DNA of 62,214 bases, the filler included, from Candidatus Woesearchaeota archaeon (GTDB taxonomy: Archaea; Nanobdellota; Nanobdellia; Woesearchaeales; GCA-2687795), in NCBI GenBank assembly GCA_030753365.1. It is 5 parts of 5 records of this genome, joined end to end, with 100 filler letters (N's around TTAATTAATTAA, not from the genome) between each part and the next. Parts side by side here need not be neighbours in the genome. Positions count along the whole stretch, not along the records: positions 1 to 24,254 come from JASMCJ010000007.1; 4 more parts are not named here. One strand, given 5' to 3'. How positions within the stretch are numbered: the first letter of the stretch is position 1; each line of letters starts with the position of its first letter. Below, piece by piece: positions 9,001 through 12,000 of the stretch. Made by a program: the position numbers.

Positions 9001-12000
9001 AATTCCCTTCCTTCTCTCAAGTTCTCTCCTTTTTAATTCAGGCTTTTCCCCATCAAAAACAAAAGCCAGCAAAAGTCCTTTCTTCATAAGATTAGGTATC
9101 CTTGAAAACAACCCAATAAGATGTGAAGTAATCATCCCATTAGAATCAGTAAGCGAAGAACCATCTCTCTGCCTAATAGAAGAAAGAAACTGGTAAAGCC
9201 ACATAGGAGTATCAACAATAAGCACCTTATTCTCCAGTTCTTTAACATCAATATCCTTCTTCACAATCAAATCAGTAATAGCAACGCCCATTTTATATAA
9301 TCAAGAAATTATGTAATACTTAATCATTTCGGTTTAGATACCCTTAATCTGCATCCCCTTAAACTCCTTATTCAACATCATCTTTGCCTTCTTAGTAACA
9401 TCCCCTGTAGTCAAAAACAATGCAGGCAGCTTCTTAGACTGCGCCTGGATATAAACAGTAGATAAATCACCTTCATTAATCTTCTTCTTATTCTTTGCCT
9501 TGCAGAAATAAGCCAAATTTCCAACTGAACTTGAAAGCTCCACCAAAAACTCAATATCATTATTCTTTCTAATCACATTCTGGTTAACCACTTTAATATC
9601 ATTCTCTTTAAAAAACTCCAGCACATTCTTAAGAAACTCATCACTCTTCAGCTTAGAAACCTTCTTCTTTACAGACCTTTCCTTCATAACAGGATGAACA
9701 GCTTCTTTCTTACCAACAGAGTTGGTGCCGGATGTAGTCCGAGCATCATCAGGTTTTATCTCTTTCTTCTCCACTTCTTTTACAACATTTCTATTTTCTT
9801 TCGTTTCCTTAACCTTTTTTTCCTTCTTAACATTAAGCTCCTTCCTAATCAACTCTTCAACATCCTGATTAGAAAGCAAATACCATTTCCAGAAAGTTTC
9901 AATAACACCTTTATAATTCACATTCAAAGGCACAGCAAAATCCTTAATCTGCCTTAACGCAACCCTATCAATAGGCTCAAGCATGCTATCTCTCAACACT
10001 TTTTTTTCCTTCAGCAAATCATAGCTCTTCTTCTCCTTCTCATGTAGCTTATTAGAATATCCCTGCAGCTTCTCCTCCTGCCCCTTAACATAATACAAAG
10101 GGCTGCCGCCAATCTTAAGGTTAGAAATCTTAACCATATTCTCAGAAGCCAGCTCAGAAAGGACAGCTGCTGCCATAATAATACTAGTCTTCAGCTCTGA
10201 ACCAATCTGTACAGGAATCAACGGCCCATCCCTCTCCACAATCTTAAGAACATCATCTCTATTAAGCATAATAAAAAGAAAAAGAATATTCGTTTAAATA
10301 AATTTATGTTTTACACAACAATCAAGGCCTTAACCACCTAATCTCATAATAGGTAACATCCCCTTCATCATCAACAATCCCAATCAACAATCTCTTCTTA
10401 GTAGAATGTGCAACCCTATTCTTAGCGGCAAACTCATACCATGTAATAGTAGAACCTTCATGCACAGGATAAACCACCCATCTTGCATGATCCTCACCAG
10501 GCTTAACTCCTCTGTCATAAATCCTGAAATCTGCTCCAAACTTCAAAGCAGTCTTAATAATATATCCTCTATTCCTAATATCCTTAAACACGCAAAACCT
10601 TACCCATATATTAGGCTCAACCTTCTGCGCTTTCTTTAAGAACTTTTCAAACGTGATTTTATGATTCCTGCCATCTACAACCTTAAGTCTTCCCTTTTCC
10701 ATAAGATACAAAGCCTCAAGCAGTGATAACTGAACCTTACCATCTTCCACTACGCTTCCATACCTGCTTTGATTATAAAGTTCTCTTGCTTCATCAGAAT
10801 TCTCTGTCAAAACCCTCTCTCTTGAGAAAAATGCAGTAATTTCCTTCTTATTATCAGTATCCTCACTACCTTCATCCTTCAAAATACTGGTATCCTTCTT
10901 ACTTTTTGCCTTTTTCTTAGCCATATACCTTTAAAAACACAAGGAGCTTATAAAATTTATTATTTAAGTAATCAAAAGCTTTAAATATCAGTAAACCAAA
11001 AATCCTACACATAGTTTATAATATAAGATACTATGGGTGACAATCTATGTTGAAAAGGGGTATATTACTTGGAATAATGCTTATCTTAAGCTCTTTTTAC
11101 GTCTTAGGCTATGGTTTTGATGTATCTATTGAACCCATAAAAACATCTATTTTTATAACAGAAGGAGCTGAATACAAGCTCACAGTCAAGAGCAACCTTG
11201 ACTATGAAAACAGATACAGAATAGTTCTGCCTGACTTCTCTCTCTGGAGCGTGCAGACAAGCCCTCAATCTCACAGATTGTCAGGAATGTTAATCCCTGC
11301 TAATTCAGAAGTCTCAACCACTCTAAAAGTATATCCCACTGAAAAAGTTTGGCCTGGAAGATACCAAATAAAAATCATTGTTGACTCAGAAAAAACAGAC
11401 GAAGAAGTAAGAAAAGTCATTGACTTAAGCCTTCTCTCTGGTGAATACCATCAGGACGAGTTTAAGCCTGAAATTCTTATAACATTAGAATTGCCTAATG
11501 AAGGAAAACTAGATCCAAGACAAAGGCAGACCATTAAGGTAGGGGTTAAGAACAAGAATCTATTAAACATAGCAGATTTAAGCTTAAGCCTCAAGAGCGC
11601 GTTGATTGATGAACAGAAAACAGGCATAAGCCTAAAACCCTTAGAAAAAAAGATAGAAGAGTTTACATTTACGTTTGATTCAACTCAAGAGCCTCTTGAA
11701 GACTCCTTAATTACGACAGTAACAGTTCTTGACAAAACATTCACAGTAGTAAGCGATTATGATGTAATAGGCTTTACCGAATCATTCCAGAAAGAGGTAA
11801 AAACTGAAAAGGGACTACTCAAAACCAAGCAAATAATTACTCTAACAAACCCCAGCAATGTTCCTGCTGAAGAACTATACCAAATAAAAACAAACCCTTT
11901 CCAAAGATTATTTGCTTCCTCAAATCCAAGAGCCTCTGTCGTTAAAGATGATGCAATCTACTTAGAATGGAAAGTTAACATTCCTGCGCAGGATTCAGTT

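Follow-up and report, generated by a model that had tools for sequence, protein, structure and literature searches.

Tiny twin-hairpin repeats lying in frame in protein-coding genes of Woesearchaeota

How does a short palindromic repeat come to lie within the reading frames of unrelated proteins, and at what cost to its hosts? The question is raised by the window analysed here, a stretch of 62,214 nucleotides made of five contigs joined via runs of N, from a tiny marine archaeon whose genome (G000) holds six such copies. The first-pass annotation regarded them as a selfish DNA repeat that adds peptide to essential proteins. All six are present where it placed them (C7:9703, C11:466, C63:5941, C8:52714, C2:7486 and C46:5240), and all are coding, in the sense orientation and in a single frame. 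Their hosts are RpoA' (in its N-terminal tail), uS17, eS6, a SurA/PPIase protein recognised by Pfam, the 311-residue product of a window gene and a charged protein of 1108 residues without a Pfam hit, and the copies sit within charged linkers or tails. A genome search with a 35-base query recovered four copies at no more than 4 mismatches, followed by those of C46 (11 mismatches) and C2 (12). The 33-mer, at up to 9 mismatches, gave five genome matches as against none for each of 10 shuffled queries, which excludes chance, the C46 copy being a weak one that is identical to the window copy at 24/33 bases.

The exact ends seen across the family (below) give the window element a length of 33 bp (Table 1), in place of the 42-51 bp reported earlier; the RpoA' copy measures 39 bp, and positions 9703-9712 are flank, outside the element. 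The window element, which starts at the third base of codon 175 and stops at the second of codon 186, is read as D-ARTTSGTNSV-G and adds a net 11 residues. Its hairpin 1 has a loop that varies across the family and is the source of most length variants, and the loop of hairpin 2, in the family mostly T-N-C (G-N-A on the other strand), is T-C-T in this copy. The host gene lies between those for a tRNA-splicing endonuclease and the flap endonuclease FEN1, and its product is predicted to combine a winged-helix N-terminal part with a nuclease-like C-terminal domain; in Foldseek comparisons (E 2e-4 to 2e-3) its structure model resembles ScpB-like winged helices and MspJI/EndoMS nuclease folds. The linker that holds the element is predicted to be coil or disordered, with pLDDT mostly below 50, and is hypervariable in an alignment of 26 homologues. 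What had been described as a clean 18-residue insertion proves to be an 18-residue alignment gap, one of three in a linker that makes the orthologue of the sister genome G001 27 residues shorter; the element accounts for 11 of these. An assembly artefact was rejected, since contigs of four runs from four studies (independent metagenomes), of which none is flagged as the source, bridge the window copy unchanged and without deletion and no joint skips it. No empty allele was seen at the DNA level among the close-strain contigs, which leave room for a rare one.

Table 1. Positions of the element, its host gene and other repeats along the window
Feature	Position	Strand	Basis or remark
Twin-hairpin element, 33 bp, in frame	9713..9745	-	Boundaries from family alignment and empty-site gaps
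Hairpin 1, stem with one-base bulge near its foot	9726..9745	-	Fold; pair counts
Hairpin 2, 5-bp stem, 3-base loop, flush with hairpin 1	9713..9725	-	Fold
Host gene, 311 aa	9334..10269	-	No Pfam hit; present in 40/41 genomes searched
Hypervariable charged linker holding the element, aa 145-210	9640..9837	-	Alignment; structure model
tRNA-splicing endonuclease gene, upstream of host gene	10322..10924	-	Pfam
FEN1 flap endonuclease gene, downstream of host gene	8257..9291	-	Pfam
Second window copy, uS17 C-tail	24822..24854 (C11:468-500)	+	32/33 bases identical to first
uS17 gene, 5' end truncated by contig start	24355..24912	+	Pfam
105-bp intergenic two-hairpin repeat, separate family	3841..3945	.	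Sequence comparison; many near-identical copies
Partial repeats adjoining the 105-bp repeat	3715..3847		
Further small repeat family	13733..13843		
tRNA-like gene (C13), hairpin-rich T-loop insert	~53050..53250		Apparent bulge-helix-bulge bounds

The copies of G000 belong to a Woesearchaeota family of 33-75-bp elements composed of two abutting hairpins. The unit starts with TGC, forms a one-base-bulged stem with a variable loop, and passes directly into a 5-bp hairpin that ends in GG; there are no terminal inverted repeats at its ends. Among 30 copies, related to one another and scored against a structure set from the consensus, pairing holds in 98% of cells, with four pairs changed on both sides in hairpin 1 and none in hairpin 2. 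Members are found in core genes (ATP synthase B, IleRS, XPD, TtuA), in intergenic regions and in the loops of other hairpins. The 3' half occurs in 12/401 genomes of the order, at least one of which (G386) resembles a chance match, as against 2 matches for the reversed control. It is absent from the sister G001 (75% complete), which gave no pattern matches and two weak model hits. A scan of the genome collection yielded 76 loci, 63 with the upstream hairpin, the 13 lacking hairpin 1 being set aside as chance. A strict 39-bp pattern matched only G000 in a class-wide draw of 401 genomes, and a model search gave matches in 90/150 genomes, many of them weak, with rough E-values and hairpin 1 alone, which are not counted as full elements. 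Record titles that name a group mostly name Woesearchaeota or Nanoarchaeota, and many bear the depositor label 'uncultured Methanosarcinales'.

The first search patterns imposed the T-N-C loop, and a later scan left it free: among the matches listed, 8/14 triloops are T-N-C, with all four bases at N, 5/14 are T-N-T, and 8 further second hairpins have longer loops; the share of T-N-C is suggestive only. Most matches listed from the loop-free metagenome scan are chance or unrelated bacterial palindromes, and no convincing twin hairpin appears among those listed from two viral searches (8 and 13 matches). Rfam gave no family match for the 10 loci scanned, the sole match being a tRNA elsewhere in L054. 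Several GC-richer, probably bacterial palindromes (L262, L302, L310, L336, L348) have stems that start like hairpin 1 and run longer. A record titled Candidatus Nomurabacteria holds a full copy within a larger repeat (L095:1188-1220), through transfer to bacteria or as a mis-binned contig. At L118 (1201-1239, minus strand) an N-terminal piece of QRPTase continues in frame via the element into an ArsP permease, either by recombination between copies or by a mis-join.

The precision of insertion was gauged from 15 inserted genes with a homologue that spans the site. The gap equals the element's length exactly in seven: TtuA (11 residues, 33 bp), XPD (17, 51 bp), a second XPD site in the unpublished genome G315 (18, 54 bp), and, with 13 residues and 39 bp each, a HemK-kinase fusion, ATP synthase B (also against PDB 2c61), IleRS and a U32 protein. 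In four others (PGM, a second kinase, two dihydroorotases) it agrees to within about one residue, and in the remaining four (NifU, Lhr, Trm1, Nop5), where the site falls in variable loops, it is off by more. Furthermore, one copy is nested inside another and others are embedded in A-runs on both sides. Together with the exact gaps, these cases indicate precise ends and no target duplication. The base preceding the element is A in 67/88 copies (22/26 in genes and 45/62 elsewhere). In genome G002, loci L039, L050, L140, L248 and L250-L253 have A-runs, the longest about 25 bases, on one flank or on both. Independent insertions are suggested by two dihydroorotase genes, L228 and L357, in which the element occupies almost the same position but is read in different frames.

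Each of the 26 curated in-gene copies has a length that is a multiple of three and lies in the sense orientation, 20 in one frame and six in another. Among 62 distinct copies elsewhere, 42 have such a length (Fisher p 5e-4), a comparison in which the in-gene set, being drawn from intact ORFs, is partly a multiple of three by selection. In silico removal of the element from 70 other copies restored no recognisable split gene. The earlier statement that the repeat is always read as a DARTTSGTNSVG-like peptide holds for all six copies of G000 but not family-wide, where it applies to 20/26 in-gene copies and the other six read ...SAPTSL. Among five G000 copies, 9 of 14 distinct changes are synonymous at the third position (p 0.017, a rough value), and several changes break pairing; the hairpins decay after insertion. 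The reverse frames are more hydrophobic or contain stops; given also A-rich coding strands and an element that follows A, the sense bias needs no RNA step. We consider it very probable, from these sequence patterns, that the copies are translated as near-neutral passengers. The reading as a selfish DNA repeat that adds peptide to essential proteins is borne out by the exact empty sites and the non-coding copies, and insertion occurs in both orientations; the element is likely to be selfish and to add 11-18 tolerated residues. That it helps to grow the long charged tails of these archaea, as had been proposed, is not supported by the sequences: the tails of the sister match in length, its uS17 having 180 residues as against at least 185 and its eS6 188 as against 189, without the element. 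RpoA' was not found in G001; in G002 and G137 it has a charged N-terminal tail from which the element is absent.

Reversed copies present a different picture, in that 11/70 form an ATG that opens an ORF of at least 50 residues; 7/9 of those scanned are Pfam-confirmed genes. The hosts include eS31, uL23, uS19 (in the unpublished genome G132), uL15, eS28 and two SBDS genes, the latter perhaps a single event. Reversed elements inside an ATG rebuild it at L076, L125, L203 (also G132), L246, L257, L364 and L373; at L246 the element separates the ATG from an apparent ribosome-binding site. Three likely insertions into loops of IS200-type end hairpins (G000 C5, L201 and L207) were seen without an exact empty twin aligned. 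The element or hairpin 1 also occurs in duplicated or folded-back tRNA 3' ends or a T-loop intron (L190, L196, L200, L209, L212). Besides the tRNA-like gene of C13 (Table 1), another at G000 C3:1393-1465 has a hairpin-rich T-loop insert with apparent bulge-helix-bulge bounds; ARAGORN listed neither.

The element had also been derived from one arm of an unspecified twin-hairpin element, a kinship that stands in part. The 105-bp repeat of the window was rejected as parent, there being no likeness to the 33-mer (485/500 shuffles score as high); one of its hairpins has a counterpart at the end of the Y1 element on G000 C31. The bulged foot of hairpin 1, on the other hand, is common to both arms of a two-arm repeat of ~165 bp, whose arms lack hairpin 2. 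Stem-loops with strict feet number 20 in G000, as against 0 and 0 in two controls, and the ~165-bp repeat has BLAST matches in 61/251 genomes. This repeat has TG...CA ends and is found at G000 C8:34377-34545, in eight more copies and at L400-L429, with a tandem form in L402 and extra hairpins at the central junction in L412 and L425. Non-coding relatives with other second hairpins lie on C24, C69, C28 and C5. The shared foot and these relatives make hairpin 1 a shared brick. Larger repeats carry the module at varying inner positions and likely explain the 24 copies in G250. At L033, L068, L078, L082, L127, L128 and L286 repeats of 200-330 bp have the module inside; their ends are inverted over ~14 bp, and direct repeats of 9-10 bp flank them.

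How might such a unit move? On balance we favour a gene-less twin-hairpin repeat that travels as a folded DNA single strand, is joined into new sites without target duplication by a putative enzyme acting in trans, and is kept where harmless. The lack of duplication, the use of both orientations, the bulged stem and the insertions within hairpin loops suggest a single-stranded DNA route. The two hairpins would stack end to end so that both flanks meet at one nick, an arrangement which would permit excision as a closed dumbbell, the intermediate that we infer, and precise insertion. Selection would then retain sense copies of a multiple of three that encode small polar residues within loops, together with reversed copies that restore an ATG with their last base. 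More tentatively, the mover could be a HUH/Y1 peel-and-paste transposase or a similar single-strand cut-and-join enzyme. In the sections of a survey drawn on here, IS200/IS605 peel-and-paste runs through single-stranded DNA, and only IS200-type Y1 of subclass 1.1 is reported from archaea (PMC6006769). Y1 genes are present in 5/5 chosen carriers, though in 56/150 relatives overall, and in 40/90 carriers by model hit versus 16/60 non-carriers (p 0.04), a difference that is not significant at five or more copies. The foot of hairpin 1 lies near a Y1 gene at 8/89 loci (4 convincing) versus 2/29 background loci. No partner enzyme was found, the ends of eight Y1-transposase loci being unlike the element, and no autonomous parent was seen among 89 Y1 loci (a subset of the order's Y1 genes) or adjoining 30 loci of the ~165-bp repeat, where the starts of neighbouring ORFs were read. 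IS608-type ends need room for guide linkers; the element's hairpins are flush with its ends and leave no such space, which counts against a Y1 mover. As to which strand folds, the T-G wobble at the foot speaks for the sense strand and the G-N-A loop for the other, and folding energies do not distinguish the two. G-N-A is the sole triloop class that makes very stable DNA mini-hairpins, according to the portion of PMC13037366 consulted. A bolder and rather doubtful version takes a 33-base closed DNA dumbbell with G-N-A caps as the true transposition unit, with a new enzyme of its own. If so, it would be among the smallest prokaryotic mobile elements, needing only an A in single-stranded DNA, and would write peptide loops into ATP synthase, synthetases and ribosomal proteins while rebuilding the start codons that it hits.

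A serious rival, although on the present evidence an unlikely one, dispenses with an enzyme and has the hairpin bricks copied within A-rich single-stranded DNA, through template switching of a polymerase or through microhomology repair. The absence of a transposase partner in our searches fits this well, as do the minimal target rule, the modular arrays, nesting, partial self-copies and fold-back copies of tRNA T-arms, and the existence of carriers with 5-18 model matches in which no Y1 gene was found (G010 and the one-contig G017). Such copying sits poorly with ends that are precise across host families, with a bulged foot and stems kept by compensatory changes, as for a recognised structure, and with copies that decay after insertion.

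Two further explanations would give the copies within genes another meaning. Either a peptide tag common to the hosts or an mRNA hairpin tuning the translation of ribosomal and core genes would account for the precise coincidence of reversed copies with start codons in ribosomal-protein and SBDS genes, and for the synonymous bias in G000. We nevertheless regard retention for a function as very improbable, given that the sites are lineage-specific, with the sister and 25 homologues lacking them, that two reading frames are used in unrelated host proteins, and that the hairpins are decaying in G000. Still harder to credit is a tiny RNA intron that the tRNA-splicing endonuclease removes, that spreads through reverse splicing and whose peptide is never made. 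The uniform sense orientation of the in-gene copies speaks for it, along with the occurrence of hairpin 1 at the tip of a T-loop intron in a tRNA of G038 and the splicing endonuclease gene that adjoins the window host gene, but a bulge-helix-bulge test found no tie between this neighbour and the element. The motif expected of archaeal introns is possible in 3/26 copies, no commoner than with shuffled flanks (16%). Moreover, no copy in a gene shifts the frame, the substitutions are biased to synonymous ones, reversed copies exist, and a reverse transcriptase was found in one of five carriers, G000 not being that one.

Protein-coding palindromes had been presented as new, which is overstated: they are already described in Rickettsia, Wolbachia and the archaeon Methanocaldococcus jannaschii, in the parts of the reports drawn on (PMC10969869, PMC2229807, PMC2996958). 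As portrayed there, these too are gene-less palindromes, apparently tolerated, that lie in frame within unstructured segments of conserved genes and also between genes. The present element resembles the RPE and MJRE in being palindromic, in frame in conserved protein genes and also found outside genes, and is set apart by description, not by sequence kinship: the RPE, in those parts, are long stem-loops of 105-146 bp with terminal inverted repeats, whereas the element has 33-75 bp, two flush hairpins and no inverted ends. A MITE is not indicated, terminal inverted repeats and target-site duplication both being absent. The same absences agree with the IS200/IS605 derivatives known as PATE, from which it differs in sharing no ends with an autonomous Y1 element and in having no fixed 4-6-base target (only base -1 is biased). 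REP/RAYT systems differ in that no GTAG or CGTC tag marks the element's ends and no RAYT gene is a neighbour; intragenic REPs, in the excerpts available, are like it 20-40-bp hairpins with clustered forms and in-frame copies in known genes (PMC3733652). The Haloquadratum SMR-A and PATE, as far as the relevant sections go (PMC3119063), are likewise archaeal, transposase-free and without target duplication, and SMR-A enters palindromes of IS605-type ends by an unexplained route, in parallel to the likely loop insertions reported here. However, SMR-A is ~110 bp long with inverted termini, which the element lacks, PATE ends match IS605-type transposons, for which the element shows no counterpart, and in-frame coding copies, present in our family, go unmentioned in those sections. 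Double-hairpin elements of fungal mitochondria, compared by shape and not by sequence, are also very short and potentially mobile by an unsettled mechanism, but are organellar, GC-rich and, in fission yeast, intergenic or in rRNA, in the account at hand (PMC10085805). No description in DPANN or Patescibacteria was found in the literature covered, most subscription journals and supplements lying outside it. The element works like these known systems but falls outside RPE, MITE, PATE, REP and SMR-A on the features tested, and is likely a small-scale version of what is known from Rickettsia and Methanocaldococcus.

Ever since the studies on Rickettsia, the way in which coding palindromes move has been a standing question. 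With its exact ends, a length within reach of synthesis and candidate host enzymes to hand, this family makes movement testable in vitro. The family further accounts for short insertions that recur in marker proteins of DPANN archaea and that can mislead alignments and start-codon calls.
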